Notes: generated from the sequence alone by a model not told the origin. A stretch of 64,000 nucleotides of DNA from an uncultured Clostridia bacterium (GCA_946529215.1 CAMMZC010000003.1:3976-67975); one strand, 5' to 3'; shown: positions 16,322 to 31,123, counted from the stretch's first letter. Made by a program: numbers and translations.

Positions 16322-16397
<76 letters not shown>

Positions 16398-16402
16398 AAT
16401 AG

Positions 16403-16440
16403 AAACCTTGAAAACTTACGTTTTCAAGGTTTTTTATTTA
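16403..16440 (+). terminator. Rho-independent terminator after tRNA-fMet
   Basis: Hairpin aaaccttgaaaa-cttacg-ttttcaaggttt, then TTTTATTT. Confidence 0.75.
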
Positions 16441-16499
16441 ATAAAATTGTTAATACATTTGCAAATTTTAGTTAAGATATATATTTATTTTCTGATGCT

Positions 16500-18575
16500 T
16501 TATTGATTTTTTAATTTTAATATGTTGATTGTTTCCATAGTTTCTTTAGACTTCTCGTTATCTTTGCCATATACTTTGCATTGTAATTTGTATAATTTTT
16601 CGTATAACTCTAGCGAATTATTATATTTTTTCATTTTTTTATAAATACTAGCTAAATTATTTAAATTCCTTAATGTATTTGGATGAGTTTTCCCTAATGT
16701 TTCTTCACTCTTTTTATATGCTTCTTTTCCAAATTTTATAGCATTATCATAATTTTCTATATCACTATAATAAGTTGCAAGATTGTTTAACGATGTTAAT
16801 GTGTTAGGATGAGAGTCTCCCAATATTTCCTTTAATTTATTATAAACTATTTCACCTAATTTTACAGCTTTATTATAATTTCCCGTATGATTATAATAAT
16901 AAGAAAGATTATTTAAGCTTCTAAATGTATCTGGATGCTCATATCCTAATGTCTCTTTTCTATTTTTGTATACCTTTTCTCCTAACCTTATTGCTTCTTT
17001 ATAATCTTTTTTATAATTATAATAAATTGCAAGTCTGTTTAAACTTGTTAATGTATTTGGATGAGTTTTGCCTAATGTTTCTTTTCTTTTTTTATACACA
17101 TCTTTTCCGAGTTTTATTGCCATATCATAATTTCCTATATTACTGTAACTGACAGCTAGATTATTTAAACTAGTTAATGTATCAATATGAGTTTCTCCTA
17201 AACTTTCTTCTCTTTTTCTATATACTTCTTCTCCAAGTTTTATTGCTATATCATACTTTCCAATATCATCATAACCTCTCGCTATATTATTTAAACTATC
17301 TAATGTATATAAATTATTCTCTCCTAATACTTCTTTTTGGATTTTATAGCATTCATTGTTTACTTCCAATGCTTTGTTATAATCACCTGTATTTCTATAA
17401 GCAACAGCCAATTTAGTTAAACTTATCAATGTATTTAAATGTTTTTCTCCTAATTCTTTTTTATCTTTTTCATATACCTTTTTTTGCCACTCTAAAGCTT
17501 TTTTATAATCTAATTTTGTTCCTTTACCTTCTTCATATATATATACAAGCTCTTTCATTGCTTCTTTACATTCAAGATTTCCTGATTGTTCAAGCAGTTT
17601 TATTCCTTTTTCTTTATTTACTTCAACATCAATGCCATTTAAATATGCTAATCCTATAAAGTATAAGTGTTTTGGATCATCATTTTCCCTCCATGCTTCA
17701 TTTATTAAATACTTTTTTAAAGATTCACTTAAAAGCTCTGTATCATTTACTTTAATCGGAACAGGTATTTCTTTATATTTTTTTTGTAATTCTTCTTTAC
17801 TTGTATCTACCGCTTCAATTGGAACTATATTTTTACATTCTTTTTTAGCATTTGGATATTCTATTTTTTCCACATAGTTTTCTTCATTTACTAGATTTGG
17901 CGTTACAACCATTGCAAATAATTTACTTTTCTTCAAAGCTTCCTCTATTGACTCATTAAAATCTTGCCCTGGCTTTAAAAACTCATCATACCAAATTGCA
18001 ATATCTCTGCAAAATTCATTTTCATGAATTAAATGCATTATGTTTTCAGCATGTTTTTTGTCTTTTTTTCTATAACTTAAAAATATATATGCATCAAAAG
18101 CTTCTTGAACCTGTTTTCTCAATTCATCACTTACTAATACTGATTCTATATATTCTTTTAATTTACTTTTATATTTTTCTTCTCCAACAACTAACTTACT
18201 TAATGCTTGAAGGTTTCCACATTTTTCGTTAAAGTAGCTATCTATATTTGGCTCCATCATTATTGGCAAAATTGGAATATGATTATCCATTGCATATTGA
18301 AATTCTACTACTCTTGCATCACATTCTTCTGATATAAATTTCCATGTTACAGGTATCACAAATAAGTTTATTTGGCTCAAGTCATCTATAATTTCTCTTG
18401 AATTAATATTTTTATCAGCTTTATAATAAATTACACAATTTCTTATATCTAGAATTTCTTCAGTTATCTCTTCAAAATATTTATCAAAATCATTTTGATA
18501 GCAACAAAAATATACTCTTGATTTATCTTTTAGTTCTTTTCCTCTTGTTTTATATTTTAACTTTATTTCTTCCAT
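16500..18575 (-). CDS. Tandem TIR-like domains + TPR (TPR_10/12-type) repeat protein
   Basis: 691 aa. Residues about 160-300 match the TIR pattern (YIFLSYRKKD...IAIWYDEFLKPGQDF...FAMVVTPNLVNE). Residues about 15-150 are a second TIR/DUF4062-like module (RVYFCCYQNDFDKYF...). The C-terminal half holds about 8 TPR repeats ending in SLNNLA..Y/ LGK.HPNTL. Confidence 0.7.
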   Translation of the reverse strand: MEEIKLKYKTRGKELKDKSRVYFCCYQNDFDKYFEEITEEILDIRNCVIYYKADKNINSREIIDDLSQINLFVIPVTWKFISEECDARVVEFQYAMDNHIPILPIMMEPNIDSYFNEKCGNLQALSKLVVGEEKYKSKLKEYIESVLVSDELRKQVQEAFDAYIFLSYRKKDKKHAENIMHLIHENEFCRDIAIWYDEFLKPGQDFNESIEEALKKSKLFAMVVTPNLVNEENYVEKIEYPNAKKECKNIVPIEAVDTSKEELQKKYKEIPVPIKVNDTELLSESLKKYLINEAWRENDDPKHLYFIGLAYLNGIDVEVNKEKGIKLLEQSGNLECKEAMKELVYIYEEGKGTKLDYKKALEWQKKVYEKDKKELGEKHLNTLISLTKLAVAYRNTGDYNKALEVNNECYKIQKEVLGENNLYTLDSLNNIARGYDDIGKYDIAIKLGEEVYRKREESLGETHIDTLTSLNNLAVSYSNIGNYDMAIKLGKDVYKKRKETLGKTHPNTLTSLNRLAIYYNYKKDYKEAIRLGEKVYKNRKETLGYEHPDTFRSLNNLSYYYNHTGNYNKAVKLGEIVYNKLKEILGDSHPNTLTSLNNLATYYSDIENYDNAIKFGKEAYKKSEETLGKTHPNTLRNLNNLASIYKKMKKYNNSLELYEKLYKLQCKVYGKDNEKSKETMETINILKLKNQ

Positions 18576-18647
18576 AACAATACTCCTATCATAAAAATTC
18601 TCTACTATTTTGTAAATGGTAAATTATTTAAAAAAATAACAATGTTA

Positions 18648-19232
18648 TTAATTAGTGATTGATTTACACATATAAATCCAAATATAGCTCCACAAATTCC
18701 ACCGAATTAAATGAGAATCATGTGCTATATTATCTTTCTTTCTTAGATCTTTTATTTCATCTATAATATAAAATATTATTATTAATACTAGAGTTATTGG
18801 TATTTTATTTTCTGTAATATTAACAAATGCACTTAAAACAGTTAGCATAAAAGATATACAGCTTGCACCTTTAAGCCATTCTTTTCCTTTAATAAAATTG
18901 AAAATTCCAACCACAAATGCAGTTATTAATATCATAATTAATAAATTAACAGAACCGTACTTTTCTTCTATAAGAGGTCCGAGTAATAAAATTTTTAGAT
19001 AATTATTTGAAAGATGACTCCAATCAGCATGTCCAAGTATATGTGTAAATAATCTTATATAAGTTAATGGGTTTAGTAAAGACGCTCTTTCTGTCGAAAA
19101 TACACGTCTTGTAGATTTTCCTTTTGTAATTTTGTCTAATAGAAGCACACCAAGAGATATAAAGAACATTGTAAGAGTTACAACAGCATTATATTGAAAA
19201 TAGTCCATTATATTAATTTCTTGTATATTCAA
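18648..19232 (-). CDS. Rhomboid-family intramembrane protease-like membrane protein
   Basis: 194 aa, multi-TM. GHADWSHLSNN, GASCIS (GxSx) and AHDSHL motifs are rhomboid-like. The ORF-track start is TTG; an alternative ATG is at 19208. Confidence 0.5.
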   Translation of the reverse strand: MNIQEINIMDYFQYNAVVTLTMFFISLGVLLLDKITKGKSTRRVFSTERASLLNPLTYIRLFTHILGHADWSHLSNNYLKILLLGPLIEEKYGSVNLLIMILITAFVVGIFNFIKGKEWLKGASCISFMLTVLSAFVNITENKIPITLVLIIIFYIIDEIKDLRKKDNIAHDSHLIRWNLWSYIWIYMCKSITN

Positions 19233-19543
19233 TGTTATCTCTTCCCTTCTTTATTCACCTTTAATATATTTTTGTATATCTTTAACTGCTTTTTTATTTC
19301 TTCTTATTTCTCTTGCTCTATTGATATCTTCCTTATACAACTCTTTGCATCTTATTTATTCTATCTATAATATCTCTTATTTCTTCTTGGTTATATTCTT
19401 TCATAAACTACTCCTACTCATTTTCAAAATACTGACTAAACTGATTTTTTAATTCGTTTAAATCATCAAAATCTATCACATCTTCTTTAATTTTACCATA
19501 CCTTATGCATAAATGGGCCATGTATATTTTATTACTTTTTTTA

Positions 19544-22500
19544 TTATTCATTTATTTTTCTTATAACTATTTCATCTTTCTCTTTAATAACAAATTCATT
19601 CATTTCTTCTTTATCAATAAATTTATAATAATATTCTCCTAAAGGTAAATTTCTTGCACCTGCTTGGCCATTTTCATTGGTAGTTATTGTTATAATCTCA
19701 TCTTTATTGCTATCAAAAATCCTTATTTTTAAACCTACCTTAGGTTTATTATTTTTATCTTTAACTTGTATTGCAAATCTCCCTTTATAACGCTCTACTT
19801 TTATAACTGGATAAAAAGTTCTATTTTCGTCATCAATAGTAACTCTATATGTTGTTTCATCCATTATATAATTTCCTGTAAGACTAATTAACTTAAATAA
19901 ATACACAAATAAATAGCCATGACGCAAAGTAACATATGCTTTACCATCTCCATCTGTTACTACTTCAGTTAAATAATGTCCTTCTTTATCATAAATATAG
20001 AATGTTCCACCTTGAATTGGGTTACTTGCATCATCAACTAATGTAATAACTAGTTGATTTCTAGGATATATCAATTTAAAATTTGTTACATCTGCACCGT
20101 TAACATATACATATTTTGACATAAGTTCTTTATCCTTGTTATATTTGTCAACTAATGCGATTCTATACATTCCAACAGGAACTTTATAGTAGCTAATTTT
20201 GGCATCAGATCCAACAAATGACTGTCCTAATTTATTATCTGCACTATCATAAAGATTTACTGCATATCCTATAAGTGCATCCTCATTTAAATCAACAAAT
20301 TTTGCTTGAATTTCTCCTAAATAGCCCAGGTTCTTATTTGGAACAAATTCGCTAATATTTTGCTTTTTAACATTTAAAGCTTTAGATGTTTCTTCATCTG
20401 TCAATTCTTTGGCTATTTTAATTAATTCATTTGAAGCAAGATTTTCTGAAATTTCAATTCCAATATCTTTTAAAATTTTTTTTCTTAATTCTATAGCATC
20501 TTTCAATTGTTTTGCTTTAATCATTTCTTGTAAGATTTTGAATTGAAATAACTCATAATCTCCGACATTGTATTTTTCAAACTTTATTTTCTTAAATATT
20601 GCTTGATATTCCACACATTTTTCGTAGTTTTTAATTGCGTCCTTTGGTTTATTATTTTTGCTTTCAACTTCAGCTAATTTAGCATATATTTCGCTTAAAA
20701 AATAATCTCGTATAGCTCTACCATAAATATTATTTTCACTTATAAATTCATTATTATTTTTCACATAAGAAATAGCGTTTTTATATGCACTTGTTGCTTT
20801 TTTAAAATTAGTTTCCTTTAAACTATTTTCAGCTACTTCGTAATATTTAGTTTTCAAATCTTCTATTAATTCGTTATATTTTTCTGTTTGTTTTTTGTAG
20901 TTTTCTATTGCTTGATTTTTTTTATTTATTAAATTTTCAATTTCTTTTTTTGAACTTGTATTGTCTGGTAAAATCACAACTTTATTATTAATAACATCTA
21001 TTTCATCATCATAAAGCAAAATTAAATTTTTATACAAACCATATGTCTTATATATTTCTTCTAATTTATTAAAAGAATCAAACATAACCAAATTATAAAA
21101 TATAGGTTTTTCAAAAAGATTCTCTTTAACATAACATAGAATTTCATTATAAATACCAACAATTTCACTATAATCTTTTTCTACAAAACCAATTTTGTTG
21201 AATTTGTAATTAGCATACTTATAATAAAGGTCTATCTTGATTTCTTGTAAATCATCAAATTTTATAGAAAATTGATGATATTTAAACCATGATTTAATTG
21301 CCTTAAAATAATTATCTACAATTTTATTAAATAAACCAATATTTGTAAAATACTTAAATATTCCATATGAACTTCTAATAATAGAATATACAGCCACATC
21401 ATTTTGATTATATTTATTATTGTTTAAAGTTTTGATTATATCCGAATATATAAATATTGCTTTGTTTAAATTCTTTTTTCCCTCTTTTGTTTTTTCATCA
21501 TCAAAAAATTTTTCAGCTTCACTACAAAGTAAGTCAGCTTTAGCTAAATCTATTTCGGATTTAATAACTGTTAAATCTCTATGATTTTCAATATTTAATT
21601 CTATCTCATAAATATTATATAAAGATTTAATAGTATTTTTTGCTTTTTCAAAGTCACCACTTAATTCATAAAACTTTGATAGCTTTATTGCTAAATTCAT
21701 TGAGTAATCTATATGATTATATTCAGCCCAATCTAAATATTTTTGTATTAATTCTGCAGCTTTGCAATAATCTTCTTGTTTATTACAAAATTCTGCAAAT
21801 ATTAAAAAGGTATCTCTTTGTAAATTGTTATCTTCTTCGACTTTTATTGCTCTTTCATATGAGGCATAGATTTCTTTAACTCTATCTGGATTATTAATAT
21901 CTAAATTATATGTTTCAGCTCTTGATATTAATTCTTGTACAAATTCAGATAATTTCTTTCTTCCACTCTCCTGCTCTACTTCTATATGTACAATATCATC
22001 ATTAATTTCTTCAATATTAAGTATTTCTTTAGCAGATTCTAAGTCACCTCTTTCTAAGCATTTATACGCAGCAATTTGTTTCTTTGTAAGATTATTTTTC
22101 CCCGCTTCTTTAGAAAACTTTTTACTAAAATCAAATATTTGATTTTCTAAATTTTGAATATCTCTTTTATATTTATAATATTTCTCTGTAATTTCATCTA
22201 ATTTATTTGCTTCTTCTTTTGTATATTTTGTTTTATCAGATGATTTTAATTCCAAATATTCATCTTCAATTTTTTCAAATTTTTCTTTTAATTCAATTAA
22301 CTGCTCATTCTTAAAAAACATCGGAATTTTATCTAATACTAATATTTCCTCGCCATCTATACAAATGCTTCCATCAATTATTTCAATTGTTACATTTGAT
22401 GTTTTCATGTCATCGATTTTATTATTAATTTCATATTTAATACGATAAATATCAATATATTCACCATAGTAATGTTGCAAATTATCTCCAACATATTTAA

Positions 22501-23341
22501 TAAACTCATCTGCTTTTTTAGTTCTCTCTTTTACATCTTTTCTAACAAATGGTCTTAAATCAAGACTCTCATTTTCAATAAAATATTTATATGCATTATC
22601 AAAGTCTTTATATATTTTTTCGTCAATGTCTTTACCAACTATTAAAAATAATCCTGAACAATCTTTCAGTTGTTTTTCTGTTAGAGAAGTTATATCTTCA
22701 TTAGTAATAAAATTAAAATATACACGATGCTTTTTATATTTATCATTTATGTTCCTAATAAAATTACTAATTGCATATTTATCATTTTCTATATCTTTAT
22801 TTCCTTCAAGAAAAATAAAGTTATATTTTTTTAATTCTTCTTTTTCTAAATCTTCTTCATCAATTTTTTCAATACTATTATTTATTATTTCTTTAACCTT
22901 ATTATATAATTCTTCTTCTTCATCATATTCTTTTATTTTATTTTTAAATCCACCATTTAATACATCATTACCAAGTTTTTCTCTAAATTTAGCTACTGAA
23001 TCATCAGCATCACATTTTTTAAAGAATATAAACCTTCTTATACCTTTAACTTCTTTAGATACATCATATTCTTCAACAGTATATTCTCCTGCTCTTTTCC
23101 CAATTAGCAATATCATAACATCAGATTCTCTTAATTTTTGATTATATTGCTCTTGTTTTCTGCCTTTTACCATAGAATTATCTTCAAATTCACATTCAAA
23201 CAAATTAATCCTAATACCTTTTTCTAATAAGTCATCTTGCATTCTTCTTACTAAGTCGCCAATTTTATTTCTTTCAGTTTCAAATTCATTAATAGAAGAA
23301 GCTAAAAATATTTTTATTTCATTTTTATTATAACTTGGCAT
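19544..23341 (-). CDS. Large cytoplasmic multi-domain protein: two DUF4062/TIR-like modules + coiled-coil/TPR + C-terminal Cna-B/carboxypeptidase-regulatory-like beta-sandwich repeats
   Basis: The N-terminus IKIFLASSINEFETERNKIGDL...SDVMILLIGKRAGE fits the DUF4062 pattern. A second similar module follows (YNFIFLEGNKD...CSGLFLIVGKDIDE). The middle has TPR-like helical repeats. The C-terminal about 250 aa has repeats like TLVDDASNPIQGGTFYIYDKEGHY and GLKIRIFDSNKDE. No signal peptide. Likely start is ATG at 23341 (RBS GAGGA); the ORF-track start at 23356 is GTG. Confidence 0.6.
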   Translation of the reverse strand: MPSYNKNEIKIFLASSINEFETERNKIGDLVRRMQDDLLEKGIRINLFECEFEDNSMVKGRKQEQYNQKLRESDVMILLIGKRAGEYTVEEYDVSKEVKGIRRFIFFKKCDADDSVAKFREKLGNDVLNGGFKNKIKEYDEEEELYNKVKEIINNSIEKIDEEDLEKEELKKYNFIFLEGNKDIENDKYAISNFIRNINDKYKKHRVYFNFITNEDITSLTEKQLKDCSGLFLIVGKDIDEKIYKDFDNAYKYFIENESLDLRPFVRKDVKERTKKADEFIKYVGDNLQHYYGEYIDIYRIKYEINNKIDDMKTSNVTIEIIDGSICIDGEEILVLDKIPMFFKNEQLIELKEKFEKIEDEYLELKSSDKTKYTKEEANKLDEITEKYYKYKRDIQNLENQIFDFSKKFSKEAGKNNLTKKQIAAYKCLERGDLESAKEILNIEEINDDIVHIEVEQESGRKKLSEFVQELISRAETYNLDINNPDRVKEIYASYERAIKVEEDNNLQRDTFLIFAEFCNKQEDYCKAAELIQKYLDWAEYNHIDYSMNLAIKLSKFYELSGDFEKAKNTIKSLYNIYEIELNIENHRDLTVIKSEIDLAKADLLCSEAEKFFDDEKTKEGKKNLNKAIFIYSDIIKTLNNNKYNQNDVAVYSIIRSSYGIFKYFTNIGLFNKIVDNYFKAIKSWFKYHQFSIKFDDLQEIKIDLYYKYANYKFNKIGFVEKDYSEIVGIYNEILCYVKENLFEKPIFYNLVMFDSFNKLEEIYKTYGLYKNLILLYDDEIDVINNKVVILPDNTSSKKEIENLINKKNQAIENYKKQTEKYNELIEDLKTKYYEVAENSLKETNFKKATSAYKNAISYVKNNNEFISENNIYGRAIRDYFLSEIYAKLAEVESKNNKPKDAIKNYEKCVEYQAIFKKIKFEKYNVGDYELFQFKILQEMIKAKQLKDAIELRKKILKDIGIEISENLASNELIKIAKELTDEETSKALNVKKQNISEFVPNKNLGYLGEIQAKFVDLNEDALIGYAVNLYDSADNKLGQSFVGSDAKISYYKVPVGMYRIALVDKYNKDKELMSKYVYVNGADVTNFKLIYPRNQLVITLVDDASNPIQGGTFYIYDKEGHYLTEVVTDGDGKAYVTLRHGYLFVYLFKLISLTGNYIMDETTYRVTIDDENRTFYPVIKVERYKGRFAIQVKDKNNKPKVGLKIRIFDSNKDEIITITTNENGQAGARNLPLGEYYYKFIDKEEMNEFVIKEKDEIVIRKINE

Positions 23342-23383
23342 TCTTATTTTCCTCACTTATCTTATTACTTTTTATATATTACC

Positions 23384-25288
23384 CTATTCTGTAAAATCAT
23401 TTAACATCATTTTTACTATATCGTAATCACTTGATTTTAAATCTTTATTAATTCCCATACTTTGTAATTGATAAGAAACATTATCTAATTCTTCAAAAGG
23501 CACAAGAGCTGGGTGTCTTCTTCCTAAATAATCTCTGTGATCATTTAATATAGGATAATATCTTCTTACATCATCAATATTGGCTTTTATATACCCTATT
23601 GTTCTCATGTAGGCATTCCATCTATCATGTTCATTTTTTGCAAGCATTTCTTTTAATTCTTCTGTATAAATTTCTCTAAACATTTTCAAATTTTCTTTTA
23701 GATTTTTAGAATATTTTTCTCCTAATACAGAATACAATTTATATTTTACATGAAGTGCACTTGCTCTTGATGAACGTTTATTATATTCATTTAAATAATA
23801 ATCTGCAGAACTTCCACGATATGCTTTATGTATTTTTTCTCCAATTTTCTCAATTTCAGAATCAACTATTTTATTATCAAAATACATATCTTTTACACTG
23901 CCAAAAGCATTTATATCATATGTTGTTTCTTTTTCATTAATAAGCTTGTTTACTTGTTCTTTTTTATATTCATTTTGAATCCAAATATTTATTATTGGCT
24001 TTCTCTCATAATTTCTAATAAATAATCTTCTTAAATCTATTGCTGTATCTAAATTTTTACTATCTGTCTCCATTGATACTAATATATAATTTATGTCATT
24101 TACCTGTTCTATAGCCTCTATTGCTTTTGGAGATTTTATATCTGCATTAACAAATGTAATATCATAATTATTTAAAATGTCAGGTGTTTCAATTTCAAAA
24201 TTTTTCTTAATTTCGTCTGCTTTTATATCAATTACTAATGCTTTAAATCTATAACCTATCATCATTCCACACCATAAAGCATCTTTTAAAAATTCTTTTC
24301 CTACTTGTCCACAACCAACAATAAGCAATGATATAACATTATCAATTGCTCCTTCATAAATTGGCTTTTTATCTAATAAATTGAAAATTGCTCTTTCTTT
24401 TTCATTTACAATTTCTACATTAACAAACTCTTTATCAGATAAATCTAATTTTATAAGTTCTTGTTCGATTTTATCTTCAACTTCTGCATCTACAACATCT
24501 TTATCTGATAATCCTAATTTTGTCAGTATTTTTTTTCTTTCTTCTAATTTTATTTTATTAATAATATCTCTATTTGCCGAGTCTAAAACTATTGGCGCTT
24601 CTTCAGTATTGTTTATAACATATACTTTAATCTTTTGGTTTTTGTATTTTTCCATAATTTCTAACGCATCATTAAGATTTTGTTCTTCATTTTCAGAAAT
24701 CATATATATAGTTATATTATTATCATAATTATTTAAATTAATTTCGCTCATTTTTTCGGAAAGCTTTATAGATTTAAAAGAATCTGTTTTACCATTTCTT
24801 TTATATTCTACATTAGTAAATATAACTGCATTATTATTGTTCACATAACCTTCTGCAATCATAACAGATTTCTCATTCATTTCTGAAAAAAAGTATAAAT
24901 TTTTATTTTTTAATCTCTTAATTTTAATACCTTTAAATAAATCGTTTAAAATAGCAATTAAAGTACTTACAGTAAAAAAAGGCAAAGCAATTAAAAAGAT
25001 ATTTATCCAAATAAAATATCCAATTCCAAAAGCACTATGTGTATTAATTTTTGATAAAACATCTATATCTTCGTTTAGTGTTATACTTTTTAATGCATAA
25101 TAAAATGTATTAGTTACTTTGATGGCGATATTACTATAATCTAAAAGTGGAAACACCAAAATTCCCAAACAAATAAGTCCTATTCCCATTATTATAAAAA
25201 ATCTATATTTAGTGTCTATTTTGTAATTTTTTAATAATACAAATCCAATTATTGTTACCACAATACTTAAACTAAAAGTTATTACCAT
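23384..25288 (-). CDS. Membrane protein with 2-3 N-terminal TM helices, Rossmann (TrkA_N/RCK-like) domain and C-terminal RyR domain
   Basis: 634 aa. N-terminal hydrophobic helices. VGCGQVGKEF is a GxGxxG motif. C-terminal ...HDRWNAYMRTIGY...RRHPALVPFEELD resembles the RyR (PF02026) pattern. The start codon abuts the stop of the upstream RyR gene. Confidence 0.55.
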   Translation of the reverse strand: MVITFSLSIVVTIIGFVLLKNYKIDTKYRFFIIMGIGLICLGILVFPLLDYSNIAIKVTNTFYYALKSITLNEDIDVLSKINTHSAFGIGYFIWINIFLIALPFFTVSTLIAILNDLFKGIKIKRLKNKNLYFFSEMNEKSVMIAEGYVNNNNAVIFTNVEYKRNGKTDSFKSIKLSEKMSEINLNNYDNNITIYMISENEEQNLNDALEIMEKYKNQKIKVYVINNTEEAPIVLDSANRDIINKIKLEERKKILTKLGLSDKDVVDAEVEDKIEQELIKLDLSDKEFVNVEIVNEKERAIFNLLDKKPIYEGAIDNVISLLIVGCGQVGKEFLKDALWCGMMIGYRFKALVIDIKADEIKKNFEIETPDILNNYDITFVNADIKSPKAIEAIEQVNDINYILVSMETDSKNLDTAIDLRRLFIRNYERKPIINIWIQNEYKKEQVNKLINEKETTYDINAFGSVKDMYFDNKIVDSEIEKIGEKIHKAYRGSSADYYLNEYNKRSSRASALHVKYKLYSVLGEKYSKNLKENLKMFREIYTEELKEMLAKNEHDRWNAYMRTIGYIKANIDDVRRYYPILNDHRDYLGRRHPALVPFEELDNVSYQLQSMGINKDLKSSDYDIVKMMLNDFTE

Positions 25289-25579
25289 TTATAGTTCCTC
25301 CTTAATTATTTTAAATCCAAGTTTTTGTATTAATTTCAATGTTTCAATAGCTGTATTTCTATCATATTCTTTTTCGCTTTCTGGCAAACTTTCATAAGAT
25401 ACTAAACAAGGTGTAGTTTTCAATTTATCATCTCGTACTATTCCATATTTCCAACCTTCATTTATTCTTCCTATAGCCCATACTTCATGTGTATTCTTAG
25501 CTAGTTTCTCCGCTAGTTTTAAAATTTCCTCACTTAAAATAACATCCTTTGTATCTACAGGTTTTGGTTGATAGTTCAT
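25289..25579 (-). CDS. RyR (ryanodine-receptor repeat) domain protein
   Basis: 96 aa. LAKNTHEVWAIGRINEGWKYGIVRDDKLKTTPCLVSYESLPESEKEYDRNTAIETLKLI matches the RyR-domain consensus (W...GW.YG..RD......P.LVPYE.L.E.EKE.DR). Confidence 0.7.
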   Translation of the reverse strand: MNYQPKPVDTKDVILSEEILKLAEKLAKNTHEVWAIGRINEGWKYGIVRDDKLKTTPCLVSYESLPESEKEYDRNTAIETLKLIQKLGFKIIKEEL

Positions 25580-25904
25580 ATTTTTCCTCCTTTTTTAACT
25601 TTCTTCATAAAACTTAAATTCTTCTTCATATGTGTGTAAAAAAAATTATATATGTAAGTGGATTTAAAAGTAATTCTTCATCGTCTGTTACATCTTCATC
25701 ATATTTTTGTCTATTATATCATAAAATTTCATATTTGTCTTGTTTTAAAGTCAAAAAATAAGTTTTTTATCTTATACTTTCACAAACTCTCTCACAACTA
25801 TTTGGCTAAAAAAAGGGCAAAATGTTTACATTCACACACCATTTATAAAAAATATATTGATATTTCAGTAAATTTTGGGTTATTTGTCTTGTCCTCATCA
25901 ACCA

Positions 25905-25948
25905 AATAAAAGCCCTGAAAATATTAATTTTTCAAGGCTTATTTTTTT
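25905..25948. terminator. Bidirectional terminator hairpin overlapping stop of DUF1189-like gene
   Basis: agccctgaaaa-tattaatt-ttttcaaggct followed by T7 on the plus strand and a U-rich stretch on the minus strand. Confidence 0.5.
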
Positions 25949-26819
25949 CATTTCTTTTTTGTTTCCACAAGATTAAATACAAATAAACAAATATTATTCC
26001 AATACTTATTATATCCATAATAGAAATTCTAAATTTTGTAAAATAACTCATTATCATATATGTAACAAAAACTATCATAGACAAGGTAGAAGCGTAAATT
26101 GTATTCATTAATGATTCTTTATAAGTCCATTTGCTTTTTAAGATTTTAGTAACAAGCCACAAACCTACAGAAATTAATGAAATATATATAACATACATCA
26201 GAGCTATACTTCCGAAATATACAACAAAATATTGTGCTATATAATATGAAAATGAAGTTCTTTTTCTTAAATATTCTAAAACATCTTTTTTGCCATATTC
26301 ATAGTTTAAATCTTTTATAAAATTTGAAGAAATCTCAGAATATTTTTGTGATACAAGTCCTTCTTCATTTTTGTTTTCATGATTGTATTTATTTGAGATT
26401 AAAACATATTCTTCTTTTAGAAATATAATAACATTATTCCTATCTGTTGCTAGATCTTTATATTGTTCTATCGCTTCTTGTTTTTCAAGAAGCGGATTTA
26501 TAACAATTACATTCCTAAAAAATTCAATTATTTTTTCATCATCTAATATAGTTGCCTCTTCGTTTTCAAGTGATAAAATATTTTCTTTAAATTTAATTTC
26601 AGGTAATTTTTCATCTAAATAATTAATTGAATTTTTTACAACATCTAATTGTAAAAAAGTTGCGATTATAGCTACAATTAAAGCTAATATACATACTACA
26701 TAGAAGAAATACTTTATTGCCTTGCTAATACCTTGTTTTCTGAGTTCCTTATATTTGCTTGGTTTTGCAATTGAATACCATATTTTCTTAAAAAAATTTA
26801 TTTTTATATTTTCTTCCAA
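25932..26819 (-). CDS. DUF1189-like membrane protein
   Basis: 295 aa. N-terminus FFKKIWYSIAKPSKYKELRKQGISKAIKYFFYVV plus multiple TM helices resembles the DUF1189 family. Confidence 0.45.
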   Translation of the reverse strand: MEENIKINFFKKIWYSIAKPSKYKELRKQGISKAIKYFFYVVCILALIVAIIATFLQLDVVKNSINYLDEKLPEIKFKENILSLENEEATILDDEKIIEFFRNVIVINPLLEKQEAIEQYKDLATDRNNVIIFLKEEYVLISNKYNHENKNEEGLVSQKYSEISSNFIKDLNYEYGKKDVLEYLRKRTSFSYYIAQYFVVYFGSIALMYVIYISLISVGLWLVTKILKSKWTYKESLMNTIYASTLSMIVFVTYMIMSYFTKFRISIMDIISIGIIFVYLYLILWKQKRNEKNKP

Positions 26820-26984
26820 ATCAGATCATTCCTCTCTTAAATACTTATAGTTGTTTAATTCTTCTTTTCTTAAACTAAATCATTATTTTAAATACACATA
26901 TATAATAGCACTTGAATAAAAAAAATGCAATCAAAACTTTAAAAATAAAAAGATTTTTATGTAATCAAATTTTTAAGCGCAAAA

Positions 26985-27195
26985 AATCCCCGCTGTAGCC
27001 GTAACTTGTGCCAAAATTTTTAACAACCTGCTCTCACAAACAGGTGGGTGCCTACCTAAATACTCATGGGCTTCTTACTACTATTATATTGCAAAAAGTG
27101 TAAGCTTGCACGCCATATTCAGAGTTCAGCCCCTCTTTAAACTTGTAGGTTCTAAAAATTCTGCAATACGCACTATGCAGGGGTTTTGTTTAATT
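26985..27195 (+). ncRNA. Candidate structured small RNA of unknown class (6S-like or other)
   Basis: About 210-bp non-coding segment with clearly higher GC than its flanks, lying between two minus-strand genes. The 5' end CCCCGCTGTAG can pair with the 3' end CTATGCAGGGG, followed by TTTT. Internal hairpins include GGTGGG-TG-CCTACC and CCTAC...GTAGG. GU pairs favour the plus strand. Confidence 0.3.
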
Positions 27196-27427
27196 ATTTT
27201 ATTGTTATATTTATATTATCATATAATAGCATTTTTTTCAAATAATTTAAGGTGCTAAATTGCTTTATTAATGTTTTTTATTATGGATTAATCTTATTCT
27301 TATTAATTTATTCTCTTTTAATCTTCATTTTTTGCCACTTTATATTTTTAATTTTTCACTAGTATTATAGCTAAGAATCTTTTATTTTGCTTGAGTTGAA
27401 AATTAAAGCATTATATGAAAATATATC

Positions 27428-29746
27428 TTAAATTCTACTAGAATTGCAAGAAAAATATATAACTTGATATTTTTTCGTAAATTCTTGTAAAATTTCAAGT
27501 GCTTTTGAGGTTTTTGATTCATCTAAATTTACAAATGGGTCATCAAGCACAACAAATGGTGTTTCGCCACTAAACAAAGCATCTATTAAACTAAATCTCA
27601 TACAGATATAAATTAAGTCTTTGTATCCAGTGCTAAAAGTTTTTATTTCTTTTTGAGAACCATTTACTTCTATTTTTACATCTAAATTTGTATCAACAGA
27701 AGTTTTTAATTCTTTGGTATCAATCAAAGATAAATATTTATTAAATCCAATAACCATACTTTTTAGATAATTTGATGAAAAGTTTTCTTTTGATGTTTTT
27801 AAAAGTTCTTCTGTTTTGTTTAAAATTTTATATTTTTCTTCTAAATTGCTTATTTCTCCTTTTAAATTTTCTATATCACTTTCTAAATATTCACTTTCAT
27901 CAATTCTATTTTCTAAAACCTCTATTTGATTTTTTATTTGATTTTTTTCGTCATTTAGCATATCAATTTTGTTATTTAAAACATCTATTTTATGCTTGAT
28001 TTCTTCTTCAGAAGCGGATATTTCTTCTATATTTTTAAATTCCTCAACATTATTTTCTTTTTCATATTTTTCTTTTTTGTCAATTATATCTTTTAGTTGA
28101 TTTTTAGATTCTTCAAATTGATTTATTTTTATTTTCAAATCTTGTATTAGGTCTGTATATGATTTGTCTATACTTATATAATATGTTTTAAAGTCATCTT
28201 CTATTTCATTTTTTAATTTTTCAAGATTAATTTTTAAATTTTGTAAAGACACATCTTTTGATATTTTGTTTTTTAATAGTGTTTTATAATTACTGTATTC
28301 TGTTTTTAAACTAGTTAAATCTAAAATCTTATTTGAACTTTCTGCTGAATAATATTGTTTTAAGAAATTTTCTACATTATGGTTTATTTCTTCTTTTTTA
28401 TTTTGCATATCTTCTATTTCTTTTTGAAGATTTAAAATTTCTTTGCTCAAGCTAGAAATTTTACGTCTTTTGTTTTTAGATAAAAAACTGAATAAACCAA
28501 AAAGTATACCTGTAGAAATTAGACTTATTCCTGCTATTTTTTGTATATTTGTAATTATCAAACCACTGCCTATTATTATTAATAATAAAGATAATATTAT
28601 TGTAATTAACACCTTTTTACGTTTTTTATTAACTATGTCTAAATCATTTTGTTTTTGTTCTTTCTCTTTTTTCTTTGTATTGACTTTTTCTTCTATATCT
28701 TGTATTTGCGAATATTCAAAAATATTTTTATCTATTTCTTCTATTGAAATATTTCCATTTTTATATTTATTTTGCAGTACTTCTAATTCTTTTGCTTCTT
28801 CATCTGTTATTTTGCAATTTGATATTTCTAATTTTGTTTTTTCTATTTCATAATTTTTATTAGCTAGATTTTCTAAAAATGAATTTGTAGGAATCCCATT
28901 TGAGAAAAATTTTTCAAAATTTTTATATTCTTCTTGGTAAGAAGAATATTTAGTTAGTATTGAGTCATAAACTTCTTTTTTGGCTTTAACTCTATCTTGT
29001 TCAATCTTTTTTTTAAGTAGTTTTTGTTCCTCAATTCTTTGATTTTCTAAGGTATGTATTTCATTTATTTTTTCTTCTAATTGATTTTTTCTTGTTTCAA
29101 AATTTTCAATATCTATTTTGCTATTTTCAAATTTTCTTTGTAAATCATATAATTTAGTCTTTTTTTCGTCTATTAGTCCACCTTGTCCTCTATCTTTTTT
29201 ATATATTTTTTTTGCTTCATTGAGTTTCTTTAATGCTTCTTCTGATGTGTTTATATCATTATCACTTTCTAACATATTTGTAAGTTTAGCATTAATGCTG
29301 TCTTCCATCTCAATCTGTATTTGCCCTTGTGGTATGTATGTACTTCTTTCATAAGCACTTTTGTTTATTTTAAATATTTCTTCTCCGATATTTTCTGAAT
29401 AATCTTTGCTCTCCAAATTTGTTTCTAAATTATATAATTTAAATGTATCATCAGTAGCTTTTTTTCCAAATGTTCTTTCTATTCTATATTTTTTGCTATT
29501 TATTTCAAATTCAATACTTCCGCCATATATTCCTCCTTGCCATGGAATATATCTTTTTCTATCTGATTTTTCAAATCTTGCATTTGCTTGAGTATCTAAC
29601 CCATAAAACATAGATTTAATAAATGTTGCAAAAGTTGTTTTTCCAAATCCATTATCTTGTTTTATTGTATTTAATCCATCTTGAAAATCATAACTAAAAT
29701 CTTGCAATTTACCAAAATTTTGTATATGGCATTTTAATAATTTCAT
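27428..29746 (-). CDS. YhaN/SbcC-like AAA ATPase with long coiled coils and central TM segment
   Basis: 772 aa. N-terminal Walker A GFGKTTF. Extensive coiled coil. Internal hydrophobic stretch VLITIILSLLLIIIGSGLII. C-terminal VVLDDPFVNLDE Walker B/D-loop. Confidence 0.7.
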   Translation of the reverse strand: MKLLKCHIQNFGKLQDFSYDFQDGLNTIKQDNGFGKTTFATFIKSMFYGLDTQANARFEKSDRKRYIPWQGGIYGGSIEFEINSKKYRIERTFGKKATDDTFKLYNLETNLESKDYSENIGEEIFKINKSAYERSTYIPQGQIQIEMEDSINAKLTNMLESDNDINTSEEALKKLNEAKKIYKKDRGQGGLIDEKKTKLYDLQRKFENSKIDIENFETRKNQLEEKINEIHTLENQRIEEQKLLKKKIEQDRVKAKKEVYDSILTKYSSYQEEYKNFEKFFSNGIPTNSFLENLANKNYEIEKTKLEISNCKITDEEAKELEVLQNKYKNGNISIEEIDKNIFEYSQIQDIEEKVNTKKKEKEQKQNDLDIVNKKRKKVLITIILSLLLIIIGSGLIITNIQKIAGISLISTGILFGLFSFLSKNKRRKISSLSKEILNLQKEIEDMQNKKEEINHNVENFLKQYYSAESSNKILDLTSLKTEYSNYKTLLKNKISKDVSLQNLKINLEKLKNEIEDDFKTYYISIDKSYTDLIQDLKIKINQFEESKNQLKDIIDKKEKYEKENNVEEFKNIEEISASEEEIKHKIDVLNNKIDMLNDEKNQIKNQIEVLENRIDESEYLESDIENLKGEISNLEEKYKILNKTEELLKTSKENFSSNYLKSMVIGFNKYLSLIDTKELKTSVDTNLDVKIEVNGSQKEIKTFSTGYKDLIYICMRFSLIDALFSGETPFVVLDDPFVNLDESKTSKALEILQEFTKKYQVIYFSCNSSRI

Positions 29747-30850: not shown

Positions 30851-31047
30851 ATTTACTGACATTCCTTTCCTGCAAGGCACAAAATTTGATTAAAATAACT
30901 GCTTTTTCAGTTATTTTCAAACTTGCCTTGCTTTTCTAGAAGTTGACTAAAAGAAATTCTGCCCAATTTCTTTTTCAAAATATATCCTAACAAAAAAACA
31001 AAAAAATGTCAATAGTTTTTCGAACATTTTTTTGTTTTCTTTTTTTA

Positions 31048-31123
31048 TGGTGCCACCAAGCAGAATCGAACTGCTGGCCTACGGGTTACGAATCCGTCGC
31101 TCTACCAACTGAGCTATAGTGGC
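31048..31123 (-). tRNA. tRNA-Thr (CGU)
   Basis: Reverse complement reads GCCACTATAGCTCAGTTGGTAGAGCGACGGATTCGTAACCCGTAGGCCAGCAGTTCGATTCTGCTTGGTGGCACCA: cloverleaf with anticodon CGT and encoded CCA. Confidence 0.88.

Follow-up and report, generated by a model that had tools for sequence, protein, structure and literature searches.

Does the block of minus-strand genes beside the initiator tRNA gene of this uncultured Clostridia bacterium form a defence island, and if so, what kind of system does it carry? For the window, by which we mean the whole 64,000-nucleotide stretch of DNA analysed, an initial annotation had proposed a single island at 16440-27430, between tRNA-fMet and the YhaN/YhaO genes that precede tRNA-Thr (31048-31123), encoding TIR-like, TPR and RyR-domain proteins that matched no named system. 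All six of its ORFs were recovered at the places given and on the minus strand. Its description as one minus-strand block does not set it apart, as nearly the whole 64 kb is coded on that strand. We find that the idea of an acquired TIR-like/RyR island without a named counterpart holds, while the proposed extent is too wide.

Relative to the nearest genome (L001, PGI 96%), the insertion spans just ~16443-25885, ~9.5 kb with five genes, instead of which L001 has ~40 bp between DUF1189 and tRNA-fMet; the segment is therefore not core genome in all relatives, its absence being seen in this one close genome. The insertion point is the 3' end of the tRNA-fMet gene (16322..16397, plus strand; anticodon CAT; ARAGORN, Rfam tRNA 63.8 bits), whose C1:A72 mismatch and GGG/CCC anticodon stem are of the initiator type. 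Alignments revealed an att-like direct repeat of ~65 bp that brackets the island. Its tRNA-proximal copy (16380..16442, minus strand) comprises the last ~18 nt of tRNA-fMet and a bidirectional terminator-like hairpin (16401-16434), and its far copy (25886..25951, minus strand) comprises a decayed tRNA-fMet 3' fragment (TGGTTGATGAGGACAAGAC) and a second such hairpin (25910-25940). The two copies are identical at 50/66 positions, with an alignment score of 31 versus 9.5 ± 1.9 for random sequences (random maximum 19). The unoccupied L001 site resembles the far copy (53/62 identical) more than the tRNA-proximal one. No integrase or recombinase domain was found by Pfam in the five ORFs, and there is no step in base composition at the borders (GC ~0.245 in the island, ~0.27 in the window). 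The absence from L001, together with the flanking att-like repeat of the tRNA-fMet 3' end, supports horizontal acquisition of the segment as an island, with the 3' end of the initiator tRNA gene as the site of integration.

On the tRNA-Thr and YhaN/YhaO side there is no island border in this genome. Both the gene for a 295-aa DUF1189 protein (25932-26819, minus strand), whose stop codon falls inside the far repeat copy, and the adjoining intergenic element are syntenic core genome shared with L001. The domain call for the former is confirmed (Pfam 4.5e-24), its membership of the island is not. The latter, which had been described as an odd GC-richer non-coding part of the island, is the 6S RNA gene (RF00013; 26983-27186, minus strand; 76.2 bits versus a gathering score of 46.4), matched over model positions 1-187 of 187 and conserved in L001.

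Three of the island's genes, encoding a 96-aa protein (hereafter RyR96), a 634-aa membrane protein and a 1270-aa protein, form one operon. It is preceded by a non-coding leader (25580..25885, minus strand; blastn and promoter scan) that carries a GGAGG ribosome-binding site and a promoter-like site (25741-25713; 10/12 matches plus an extended TG, not above the chance count). RyR96 (25289-25579, minus strand) is a soluble single RyR domain (Pfam RyR 6.4e-35; up to 1.9e-65 against PDB RyR repeats) with H31, W34, T56 and D73, and its stop codon directly abuts the start codon of the 634-aa gene, in agreement with the translational abutment reported initially. It is 88% identical to residues 290-384 of a fusion protein at locus L081, of which the N-terminal part is AbiD (PADLOC 1.2e-35, a whole-length match; RNICAH represents the Rx4H motif), a HEPN predicted RNase (PMC3710099). 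In blastn comparisons, homology of the RyR96 region to a further locus, L088, starts 5 bp upstream of the ATG, and the leader is unrelated to the AbiD-coding DNA at the same position in L088 and L081. By these alignments, RyR96 is the surviving C-terminal domain of an AbiD(HEPN)-RyR fusion that belongs to a fuller version of the cluster. AbiD genes, RyR-fused or not, adjoin homologues of the 634-aa gene in five loci, with N-parts matching PADLOC AbiD at 1e-35 to 2e-50. The upstream gene of the full cluster, with its whole-length AbiD match, is akin to the AbiD/AbiF (Abi_2) HEPN proteins but adds a C-terminal RyR domain, a fusion that goes without mention in the HEPN survey (PMC3710099); the window has lost the AbiD part.

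The 634-aa protein (23384-25288, minus strand) is the signature of the module. It has three hydrophobic helices (1-22, 26-56 and 84-118), tandem RCK/KTN Rossmann lobes and a C-terminal RyR domain of the R12 type, in line with the membrane Rossmann plus RyR protein annotated at first. The RCK/KTN fold is recognised with its GxGxxG...D motif, of which G325-x-G327-x-x-G330 and D354 are invariant in the family, and the Pfam TrkA_N match is marginal (E 0.11). The RyR domain is below the Pfam threshold (20.9 versus 27.4 bits) and is identified by hhalign (98.4%, E 6.5e-15); a distant family member matches the RyR profile at 8.5e-16. In alignments, H554, W557 and H592 fall on the residues through which the phage proteins RyDEP (H75/W78/H100) and RyR Tad (H129/W132/H154) contact their ligands, and the H, W and H at these positions are conserved at 95-98% across 63 members of the family, which comprises 3319 clusters. 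D621, an invariant residue of the domain, pairs with the phage Asp by hhalign only and not by MAFFT. No pore is proven in the transmembrane part, only the RCK part matching channel proteins. The protein differs from the K+ channels and transporters gated by RCK/KTN domains (TrkA/KtrA, MthK, GsuK, CASTOR) in having no K+ selectivity filter or Ion_trans_2 match, only three predicted TM helices, and an extra C-terminal RyR domain.

Directly downstream lies the gene for the 1270-aa giant (19544-23356, minus strand), a cytoplasmic protein in which no signal peptide or TM segment was found. Its N-terminal DUF4062 domain (Pfam 27.2 bits versus a cut-off of 24.7) contains an invariant E95-E96-Y97, of which E95/E96 are unchanged in eight homologues, and is above the Pfam threshold in its five close homologues too (P0229-P0233). 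A long helical, TPR-like middle follows, and the C-terminus consists of two prealbumin-like beta-sandwich domains (Pfam SpaA 7e-9; CarboxypepD_reg), both parts as first annotated. The earlier call of a double DUF4062 is secure for the first copy and moderately supported for a probable degenerate second copy at ~175-330 (hhalign 67%, E 5e-5; predicted structure with a pLDDT of only 45), in which K-D-F replaces E-E-Y. DUF4062 has been described as a TIR-like NADase defence domain (10.64898/2026.05.01.722283).

At the tRNA-proximal end of the island lies a 691-aa tandem-TIR plus TPR protein (16500-18575, minus strand), in which no TM segment was found and which is cytoplasmic. A TIR_2 domain (164-257; Pfam 5.9e-12) is followed by strong TPR matches (Sel1/TPR_12/TPR_10 repeats), and a divergent TIR-like domain at ~15-150, undetected by Pfam, matches the protein's own TIR_2 domain in profile-profile comparison (hhalign 97.9%, E 4e-13), which bears out the tandem-TIR call. 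The protein has more than 437 homologues, and E239 in its TIR_2 domain is conserved in at least 90% of 121 of them. Three contexts of this family that we examined are TIR-rich islands without the 634-aa RyR membrane gene. These contexts identify the gene as an independent, stand-alone module of a family that populates TIR-rich islands, so that the island is better described as a recurrent module plus an unrelated tandem-TIR-TPR gene than as the one grouping first proposed.

How general is the association between a TIR-like protein and the 634-aa family? We surveyed 33 non-redundant loci at which a homologue of the 634-aa protein is encoded; 31 were informative. A TIR-superfamily gene is the immediate neighbour in 18/31 (TIR-WD40 in 11, DUF4062 in five, TIR-NB-ARC-TPR in two), with one fragment in addition; these counts are not phylogenetically independent, because most loci come from related gut and rumen Firmicutes. 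The DUF4062 giant is directly downstream of the membrane-protein gene in all five contexts seen (L081-84 and L088). The TIR partner may be upstream or downstream, and the few gaps that were read span ~10-110 bp, with 320 bp in Butyrivibrio; even at ~20% effector identity, a megaplasmid of Butyrivibrio fibrisolvens still has the two genes together (WP_167562754.1 and WP_073389489.1). The TIR-WD40 and TIR-NB-ARC partners carry an S-x-W/H-C-x-x-E motif. A partner swap is visible at L093, where the effector gene is kept at 89% nucleotide identity and a TIR-NB-ARC fragment replaces the giant. The constant element across loci is the 634-aa protein, not the TIR type, and the recurrent core is a TIR-superfamily protein beside a membrane protein that combines RCK/KTN with RyR. 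The pairing is not strict, since six loci (e.g., L085-87, on 25 contigs) have a 634-aa homologue without a recognisable TIR, AbiD or RyR neighbour.

This pair is recurrent and so far unnamed, and no published description of it was found in the literature. The domain assignments on which it depends (TIR_2, TPR, DUF4062, RyR, Rhomboid) are supported by Pfam HMMs, and PADLOC returned only weak, TIR-level matches to ThsB/SAVED-TIR (E 3e-6 to 1e-3), with no model for the 634-aa family. The closest parallel is Thoeris, especially type II (TM plus Macro effector) and type X: a TIR-family gene adjoins a gene that joins a nucleotide-binding domain to a membrane or toxic module, and experiments have established that the RyR fold binds the Thoeris signals 2'cADPR, 3'cADPR and cADPR. 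As in Thoeris, we found a TIR-family protein with conserved Glu residues (E95-E96, E239) and an adjacent, though not universal, effector gene. In the Thoeris survey (Yirmiya et al. 2025, 10.64898/2025.12.03.692087), type X combines a TIR protein with an 'ion channel' effector, ThsK, and has no signal assigned. Its listed TIRs are small and ThsB-like, unlike the partners here; ThsK itself is compared here by description. Whereas ThsB of Thoeris is small, the partners here are large and sensor-fused (WD40, NB-ARC-TPR, DUF4062-TPR-beta-sandwich), and the effector sensor is RyR plus RCK/KTN. In the survey's text and the parts of its tables covered, RyR, ryanodine as effector, TrkA, PF02026 and PF02254 do not appear, and sensor-fused TIRs (NB-ARC, WD40) were deliberately excluded from the survey (10.64898/2025.12.03.692087). 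Two of the partners, at L089 and L092, are TIR_2 plus NB-ARC plus TPR proteins like those of TIR-STAND/Avs-like NLR systems, from which the loci differ in the dedicated RyR membrane protein, and the window in having no NTPase domain. A point against the Thoeris parallel is the similarity of large TIRs with fused sensors (NB-ARC, WD40) to Avs/NLR-type proteins, whose TIR is itself the effector.

Based on these comparisons, we propose with moderate, evenly balanced confidence that the island holds a reduced copy of a recurrent cluster with Thoeris-like signalling and an RyR-sensor membrane effector, together with the independent tandem-TIR-TPR module. The pair probably has an alarm-and-response antiviral role. 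The analysis demonstrates the insertion, the identities of the domains, the recurrent adjacency and the conservation of the ligand residues; from these we infer the NADase activity, signal, ligand binding, membrane effect and antiphage function that the proposal entails. The giant is proposed as the sensor and signal generator, a TIR-like NADase, and the 634-aa protein as the signal receiver and membrane effector. The TIR-like partner, large and cytoplasmic (in the window, the DUF4062 giant), would sense infection through its repeat and beta-sandwich domains and cleave NAD+ to an ADP-ribose-type product, linear or cyclic. The RyR domain of the membrane protein, possibly with its NAD-type Rossmann site, would bind this product, and the protein would perturb ion balance or membrane integrity so that the infected cell stops. 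In full clusters, AbiD(HEPN RNase)-RyR would be a second RyR-sensor effector, and RyR96 alone may serve as a buffer for the signal or as a partner of the membrane protein.

Alternatively, the giant, its TIR-WD40 and TIR-NB-ARC counterparts and the tandem-TIR-TPR protein could be self-contained abortive-infection NADases that act by NAD+ depletion, like Swarozyc or TIR-Avs, with RyR96 and the 634-aa protein as host-encoded regulators rather than effectors, which would sponge or hydrolyse stray (c)ADPR, or sense NAD/ADPR, and thus avert autoimmunity or reset the system. The likeness of the giant to Swarozyc is pertinent here: both have an N-terminal DUF4062 with a large auxiliary region after it, both reside in variable islands, and in both a conserved acidic residue, E95/E96 here and E97 in KpSwz, is found at about the same depth, ~81 residues into the domain (compared by position only). 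Swarozyc is a single-gene DUF4062 NADase (Osinski et al. 2026, 10.64898/2026.05.01.722283) whose product is linear ADPR and which works through NAD+ depletion alone, and therefore no receiver would strictly be needed; large sensor-fused TIRs are, moreover, usually effectors themselves. However, Swarozyc stands alone, whereas the giant is part of a multigene cluster behind the membrane-protein gene in 5/5 contexts and has 1270 aa, with a probable degenerate second TIR-like domain, a TPR-like region and prealbumin-like domains. The phage proteins RyDEP and RyR Tad (gp68) share the PF02026/R12 fold with the window's RyR domains, with H-x-x-W in all sequences, the second His being kept in the membrane family and the Asp in RyR96. 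They bind 2'cADPR, 3'cADPR and cADPR at nanomolar affinity, and RyR domains bind or cleave TIR-made cADPR signals; all characterised RyR-domain proteins in a TIR context sequester or cleave signals and none transduces them (PMC13232231; 10.64898/2026.06.04.730250). RyR96 has equivalents of the catalytic His-Asp dyad (H31, D73), and the 634-aa protein probably does too (H554, D621), as a regulatory role would predict. Unlike the phage proteins, those described here are host-encoded, with RyR fused to membrane-RCK or AbiD and linked to TIR, which points to signal reception or regulation in defence and not to viral counter-defence. Screening 2.9 M viral contigs returned no relative and no viral structural match, which points to a host origin. 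Against the regulator reading, it is not evident why a sponge or hydrolase should carry three TM helices together with a tandem RCK gating unit, the latter a hallmark of ligand-gated channels and transporters; RyR fused to the toxic AbiD/HEPN has the sensor-plus-toxin architecture of a ligand-activated effector; and it is the membrane protein, not the TIR type, that is constant. We consider the regulator reading unlikely.

A different concern is that the copy in the window may be an inactive relic heading for loss. The cluster recurs at chromosomal sites unrelated to one another (L081, L083 and L088). Its full form also holds two conserved proteins of unassigned function, X and Y, and has genes for a sigma-70 r3/r4-like and a rhomboid protein at its end. 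The window retains the last gene (194 aa, 18648-19232, minus strand; Pfam Rhomboid 1.1e-12, consistent with the original call), 83-87% identical to the L081 and L083 orthologues. Genes X, Y and sigma, intact in L081, L083 and L093, have left deletion scars (19341..19548, minus strand; blastn against L081/L093), namely ~79 bp of the 5' part of X and ~125 bp of the end of Y and the start of sigma, with a 23-aa sigma remnant (tblastn, E 0.003). By these comparisons, the copy in the window arose by deletion of AbiD, X, Y and sigma from a larger cluster of seven genes. Because of these losses and of a frame-altered rhomboid C-terminus (the terminal 28 aa of the L083 protein are matched in a different frame, and the TM6 GG motif is lost), the copy may be partly or wholly inactive; the decayed att repeat and the missing integrase fit such decay. 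Nevertheless, the 96-, 634-, 1270- and 691-aa ORFs are full-length with all family-invariant residues retained (the first three at 70-88% identity to relatives), RyR96 has its own leader with ribosome-binding and promoter-like sites, the latter scoring not above chance, and the rhomboid alteration also occurs in L081, whose cluster is complete in other respects. Since the membrane protein is independently paired with a solo small RyR protein in L116 and L113, the reduced form may well function as it stands. That the copy is a mere relic seems to us quite unlikely.

Co-location without coupling must also be considered, with the 634-aa protein as an ordinary nucleotide-regulated channel or transporter subunit, active in K+ homeostasis or NAD-metabolite sensing, in variable regions that also gather TIR genes, the island being a mixture of accessory genes. 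RCK/KTN domains do regulate housekeeping K+ transport (TrkA, KtrA, Kef), these gut Firmicutes are generally TIR-rich, and some family members lie beside UvrB, cellulase, Band_7 or a solute-binding protein, with no conflict-type neighbours. Yet TIR abundance alone does not yield the pairing, because the three TIR-TPR contexts are without the 634-aa gene. The fact that three unrelated TIR architectures directly adjoin the gene, on one side or the other and over ~20-100% effector identity, the translational abutment with RyR96, the co-inheritance of the whole set as a mobile cluster at different genomic sites and the existence of AbiD-RyR fusions make simple co-location very improbable.

The weakest alternative, to which we give hardly any credence, is a regulated-proteolysis/sigma circuit in the envelope, triggered by a cue from the membrane or derived from NAD and with the TIR-like domains as scaffolds, conceivable because the full cluster ends with the sigma-70 r3/r4-like and rhomboid genes (conserved in L081 and L083), has conserved X and Y proteins, and encodes prealbumin-like domains typical of surface proteins, but opposed by the dispensability of sigma, X and Y (the window has lost them and kept the three core ORFs intact, and they are missing where the partner is TIR-WD40 or TIR-NB-ARC), by the giant's lack of a signal peptide or TM segment, and by the conservation of catalytic-type Glu residues.

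Returning to the reading of the pair as signal generator and RyR-sensor effector, we tentatively suggest a broader possibility, that the 634-aa proteins are a widespread bacterial channel-like family in which the R12 domain receives TIR-made ADPR/cADPR and converts it into a membrane or ion-flux response. If so, the long-debated axis from cADPR to the ryanodine receptor in animals would have in this family its prokaryotic counterpart and possibly its evolutionary origin. Phages would have captured the receptor domain from their hosts to give the RyR sponges and glycosidases reported in 2026, and the AbiD-RyR fusion would represent a second effector class, an RyR-gated HEPN RNase that uses the same receptor.

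Very probably, the segment of the window at ~16443-25885, inserted at the 3' end of tRNA-fMet, is an acquired island of defence-type genes. All open reading frames named in the initial annotation were found where it had placed them, and Pfam supports most of its domain calls (TIR_2/TPR, Rhomboid, DUF4062, beta-sandwich, RyR and DUF1189), with the second DUF4062 copy supported only in part; its genes and most of its domains therefore stand, while its extent and two of its elements do not. The island genes, all on the minus strand, encode a 691-aa tandem-TIR and TPR protein (16500-18575; TIR_2 5.9e-12, strong TPR_12/TPR_10), a 194-aa rhomboid protein (18648-19232; Rhomboid 1.1e-12), a 1270-aa protein referred to here as the giant (19544-23356; DUF4062 at 27.2 bits with a cut-off of 24.7, and SpaA/CarboxypepD_reg beta-sandwich domains), a 634-aa membrane protein (23384-25288; weak RyR match) and the 96-aa RyR96 (25289-25579; RyR 6.4e-35), whose stop codon directly abuts the start of the 634-aa frame. 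The giant frame starts with GTG (23341-23356); the database entry for the identical protein, P0229, gives a length of 1265 aa, implying a start at an ATG five codons downstream. The GC content of the window is very low (~26-27%), and because nearly all of its genes lie on the minus strand, the 'minus-strand block' described previously is not a distinguishing feature.

The block had been drawn from 16440 to 27430, and comparison with a close relative moves its far border inwards. The tRNA-Met(cat) gene (16322-16397, plus strand, ARAGORN) is an initiator tRNA, judged by its C1:A72 mismatch and GGG/CCC anticodon stem. A scan of 185,579 species genomes with the flanking PGI protein assigned the window to an uncultured, low-GC Clostridia lineage of gut or rumen and identified a goat-omasum MAG (L001; PGI 96%) as the nearest genome. 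Its gene order is NrdD, tRNA-Thr, YhaO, YhaN, 6S RNA region, DUF1189, tRNA-fMet, L21, L27 and PGI, with only about 40 bp between DUF1189 and tRNA-fMet, and the homology traced by blastn breaks off at window ~16468 and ~25955. This order and these break points show that five genes (~9.5 kb) are inserted in the window relative to L001, and assign the 295-aa DUF1189 protein (25932-26819, minus strand; DUF1189 4.5e-24), 6S RNA and YhaN/YhaO to the syntenic core. Thus, the expected absence of the segment from a relative was confirmed at tRNA-fMet, but not on the DUF1189/YhaN/YhaO side. What had been described as an odd, GC-richer non-coding element is the 6S RNA (ssrS) gene (26983-27186, minus strand; Rfam RF00013, 76.2 bits versus a gathering score of 46.4, full model length), located between DUF1189 and YhaN and also kept in the nearest relative. 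The other 79 PGI-anchored genomes (PGI 75-81%) differ in gene order around PGI and are uninformative on island presence.

The island is flanked by two copies of a direct repeat of about 65 bp (16380-16442 and 25886-25951), consisting of a terminator hairpin and the last ~18 nt of the tRNA. The copies are identical at 50/66 positions with an alignment score of 31, where the random expectation is 9.5 +/- 1.9 with a maximum of 19 (3000 random windows). In the far copy the tRNA fragment has decayed, and the hairpin resembles the unoccupied L001 site more closely (53/62). This arrangement is the textbook signature of integration at the 3' end of a tRNA gene. The island contains neither an integrase gene nor a GC anomaly, and therefore the integration event is old or its mobility genes have been lost. 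The two att copies are the only terminator-like hairpins within the island, so the five genes may form one transcript; a promoter scan found 84 sites versus 92 expected by chance, and a named promoter-like site is thus a position only.

Several features of the surrounding core were also observed. The final codons and stop of DUF1189 (25932-25951) fall within the far att repeat/terminator hairpin, and at its C-terminus the protein departs from the L001 orthologue. L001 carries its own 2.4-kb insertion (L001 1164-3571) at the 3' side of tRNA-Thr, with genes for a 173-aa sigma factor of the ECF type and a 518-aa DUF4179 anti-sigma-like protein; neither gene occurs in the window, where the equivalent site is ~31036-31040, beside tRNA-Thr(cgt) (31048-31123, minus strand, ARAGORN). 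Since the window has its insert at tRNA-fMet and L001 at tRNA-Thr, both tRNA sites are variable, in different genomes. The YhaN-like protein (27428-29746, 772 aa), an SMC/Rad50-like homologue with a long hydrophobic stretch in mid-coiled-coil (about residues 385-430), has weak PADLOC LmuB matches (6.5e-14), yet it is syntenic core in L001.

A word-indexed search yielded 79 full-length homologues of the 634-aa protein at 38-100% identity, and its family profile matched 3319 representative clusters at E <= 1e-3 (949 at E <= 1e-30). Around these homologues a gene cluster recurs. In L081 (76%) it comprises an AbiD-RyR fusion, the membrane protein, the DUF4062 giant, the conserved proteins X and Y, a sigma-70 r3/r4-like protein and the rhomboid; L083 (59%) has the same set with the giant split into 156 + 1180 aa, and the two clusters sit at unrelated chromosomal sites. 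L088 (82%) carries the AbiD(Abi_2)-RyR fusion, the membrane protein and the giant, within which the contig ends. Elsewhere, the membrane protein is found with TIR_2-NB-ARC-TPR (L089, 52%), TIR-WD40 (L090, 42%), AbiD and TPR proteins (L091, 38%) or no recognisable partner (L085-87, 47%).

Aligned with these loci, the window copy is a deletion derivative of the recurrent cluster. At the DNA level, similarity to L088 sets in 5 bp ahead of the start codon of RyR96; in place of the sequence coding for AbiD there is ~310 bp of unrelated leader, X is reduced to ~79 bp and the Y/sigma junction to ~125 bp (19341-19548). An AbiD pseudogene hidden upstream of RyR96 was ruled out by this homology boundary and by the lack of any tblastn or blastn signal. 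Relative to the L083 orthologue, the rhomboid of both the window and L081 has its C-terminus in another frame. Through this frame change (window 18620-18705; L081 18153-18773), other sequence takes the place of the TM6 'HLIGGxxGxxFG' segment, and an ending of the L083 type can still be read in another frame of both genes.

Across loci, the giant gene is modular: in L083 (5882-9891) the split falls exactly where the DUF4062 domain gives way to the second TIR-like domain, L091 (5439-7614) has only the second-domain module with TPR pieces, beside an AbiD without RyR, and L112 (1126-1641) has the DUF4062 domain alone (171 aa). Just upstream of AbiD-RyR in L081, a 66-aa frame (8639-8839) resembles the start of a TIR domain, its first strand and helix (FISYNSEDA...; TIR_2 E 0.003) and is probably a TIR gene fragment. 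Distant family members in L116 (2556-4748) and L113 have a solo 92-93-aa RyR protein downstream, not upstream, so a large RyR protein beside a small one is a recurrent combination and not only a product of truncation.

An AlphaFold2 model of the 634-aa protein (pLDDT 84.2, pTM 0.73; 21-sequence alignment) has three N-terminal hydrophobic helices, two Rossmann-like lobes and a four-helix C-terminal domain. The Pfam RyR score of this last domain is sub-threshold (20.9 bits), and only 1/42 distant members scores; compared as profiles, the family matches the bona fide RyR domain at 98.4% (E 6.5e-15), by which we assign it as an RyR (R12) domain. No pore or K+ selectivity filter is demonstrable in the protein, and it is the RCK architecture, and that only, which suggests a channel-like reading. 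Against PDB sequences, sequence and profile searches with this family gave nothing meaningful: designed knot proteins and, marginally, an RyR1 chimera. A second, degenerate RyR repeat at residues 470-545, upstream of the RyR domain, was ruled out (hhalign 9.5%). A viral origin was ruled out by the family's absence from 2.9 million viral contigs; given no viral relative in either sequence or structure, it is a cellular protein. In PHROGs, RyR-level matches were found for RyR96 only, with none for the 634-aa or 1270-aa proteins.

RyR domains are known from phage proteins that counter Thoeris. RyDEP cleaves TIR-made Thoeris signals (residues H75/W78/H100/D117; PMC13232231), and RyR Tad gp68 sponges them (H129/W132, K147/H154, K170/D171), binding 3'cADPR with a KD of 43 nM as well as 2'cADPR and cADPR (10.64898/2026.06.04.730250). 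Both preprints, from 2026, remark on a puzzling likeness to animal ryanodine receptors (PMC13232231; 10.64898/2026.06.04.730250). We aligned gp68 directly with the membrane family, RyR96, the AbiD-RyR fusions and small RyRs, and found the ligand residues H and W conserved in every sequence. At the second His position, the membrane family keeps His (H592, 95% of 63 members), while RyR96, the fusions and the small RyRs have Thr. The ligand Asp is conserved in small RyRs (D73); the membrane family has an insertion before it, and its invariant D621 pairs with the phage Asp in the hhalign alignment only.

The best 'phage' match to RyR96 (61%) is a solo 97-aa RyR protein on L122 (MT837259.1, 'UNVERIFIED Bacteriophage sp.'), surrounded by a BT4734-like primase/DUF3987, HU-HIG, a Schlafen-AlbA_2 protein, RidA and a Mur-ligase fragment. 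This contig looks like a Bacteroidota-type bacterial mobile element rather than a phage, and was set aside as evidence of a phage origin for RyR96. A 918-aa protein in L115 (5553-8309) joins an AAA/novel-STAND NTPase region to two RyR repeats (PF02026 6e-24), a further host architecture that places RyR domains on a conflict-type NTPase.

Scanning metagenomes contributed 24 further loci; over the whole set, all neighbours were clustered and representatives domain-scanned. Among 33 non-redundant loci, 31 were informative (2/33 being too short to judge), and a TIR-superfamily gene is the direct neighbour of the membrane-protein gene in 18/31 (plus one fragment); six loci have no recognisable TIR, AbiD or RyR neighbour. 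This neighbour is a TIR-WD40 protein of ~810 aa in 10 metagenomic loci (TIR_2 2e-9, ThsB_TIR above threshold, WCKKE motif), a DUF4062 protein in five, and a TIR-NB-ARC-TPR protein in two and one fragment; it lies either upstream or downstream. AbiD adjoins the membrane-protein gene in five loci and a solo small RyR protein in three (the window, L113 and L116), and X-family proteins recur among its neighbours. The few intergenic gaps read are ~10-110 bp, and 320 bp in Butyrivibrio. Because most loci come from related Firmicutes, their counts are not independent events; the three TIR architectures and two gene orders are independent.

In L093, the membrane-protein gene is 89% nucleotide-identical to that of the window and adjoins a TIR-NB-ARC fragment, not the DUF4062 giant; on this comparison, close relatives have exchanged partners. 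A cultured organism has the pairing independently: on megaplasmid pNP243 of Butyrivibrio fibrisolvens D1, an 814-aa annotated TIR protein of the TIR-WD40 type (hhalign 100%, E 1e-48 versus the metagenomic family) is encoded directly upstream of a hypothetical protein of 604 aa; the latter belongs to the family over its full length (hhalign 100%, E 1e-53, ~20% identity) and keeps all motifs. The unexplained neighbours in L085-87, L096, L105, L106, L109 and L110 have no similarity to TIR, DUF4062 or RyR. In L085-L087 (protein P0035, on 25 contigs), where TIR, AbiD and RyR neighbours are lacking, the gene is flanked by conserved frames of 95, 448 and 179 aa upstream and 160 aa downstream, with no Pfam match and no hhalign similarity to TIR, DUF4062 or RyR profiles.

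The tandem TIR arrangement proposed for the 691-aa protein proved correct, though unseen by Pfam: its N-terminal domain (15-150), which has no Pfam support as an isolated segment, aligns to its own family's TIR_2 domain (hhalign 97.9%, E 4e-13). A Glu is conserved at >=90% in the second TIR domain only (E239). The two-domain head is kept in >437 gut Firmicutes proteins with varying Sel1/TPR tails. In the three contexts inspected (L117-L121), all of them islands rich in TIR genes, it is accompanied by further TIR_2 genes, CAP12-PCTIR_TIR/prok_STING and ThsB-like TIRs, and in no case by the RyR membrane protein; we therefore treat the 691-aa gene as an independent passenger of the island. On these gut Firmicutes contigs, arrays of up to six TIR paralogues (TIR-Sel1/TPR, TIR-LRR, short TIRs) adjoin the CAP12-PCTIR_TIR/prok_STING genes and a giant protein kinase.

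Work from 2026 established DUF4062 as a TIR-like NADase converting NAD+ to ADPR and nicotinamide, and Swarozyc as a single-gene DUF4062 defence with catalytic E97 (10.64898/2026.05.01.722283). The giant has an invariant E95-E96-Y97 at a distance from the domain start equivalent to that of E97. Its second DUF4062-like domain has no Pfam support as an isolated segment and is only partially rescued by hhalign, and the AlphaFold2 model of residues 1-345 was unusable (pLDDT 45, 5-sequence alignment). AbiD is a predicted RNase of the HEPN superfamily (PMC3710099); the L081 fusion carries RNICAH (Rx4H motif) and matches PADLOC AbiD at 1.2e-35.

We propose that, upon infection, the sensor-fused TIR-like protein would make an ADPR-type product, that the RyR domain of the membrane-RCK protein, and in full clusters also that of the AbiD toxin, would receive it, and that the effector module would then arrest the cell. 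The logic is that of Thoeris, with RyR as a new receptor domain; for this full mechanism we consider the chances evenly balanced. The main rival, which we regard as unlikely, is that the TIR proteins act through NAD+ depletion alone, as the NADase activity of DUF4062 would allow, and that the RyR proteins are host brakes or sinks, a role resembling that of the phage sponge; a pure brake is argued against by the fusions of RyR, one with a toxin domain and the other with an RCK-membrane unit of gating type. Somewhat less likely still is a decaying, inactive copy in this genome, a reading that concerns the window, with its lost AbiD, X and Y, and not the complete clusters. Co-location without coupling is improbable, the recurring TIR neighbours speaking against it and the loci without them for it, and a non-immune regulatory cluster, for which the sigma-like gene might speak, is very improbable. 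Of the earlier interpretation, the defence or conflict island and the absence of a matching named system are retained.

Host RyR proteins linked to TIR genes are not described in the two phage preprints (PMC13232231; 10.64898/2026.06.04.730250) or the HEPN survey (PMC3710099), nor in the Thoeris survey, whose text, like the parts of its tables that were accessible, contains no 'RyR', 'TrkA', PF02026 or PF02254 (10.64898/2025.12.03.692087). The same survey validates type X Thoeris, whose signal is unknown and whose effector is called an 'ion channel' (10.64898/2025.12.03.692087); this effector is a possible counterpart of the 634-aa family. What is new here is a large, uncharacterised host TM-RCK-RyR family at the centre of a variant of TIR signalling or NADase defence.

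Beyond correcting the annotation of the 6S RNA gene and the true island borders, the weight of these findings rests mainly on the recurrent pairing of TIR and RyR-membrane proteins and its bearing on the RyR-cADPR question. Both phage RyR preprints leave unasked what host-encoded RyR domains do. The locus points to an answer: a bacterial RyR domain that is linked genetically to enzymes of the TIR family and joined to modules of effector type, either a membrane/RCK unit or an AbiD toxin. If this is confirmed, Thoeris-like immunity would gain both a receptor domain and an effector class that are new to it, along with candidate receptors for TIR signals still to be identified, such as that of type X. 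Whether ryanodine-receptor R12 domains are genuine (c)ADPR sensors would become testable in a simple bacterial system, for which the Butyrivibrio proteins WP_167562754.1 and WP_073389489.1, from a cultured organism, are a ready test pair.
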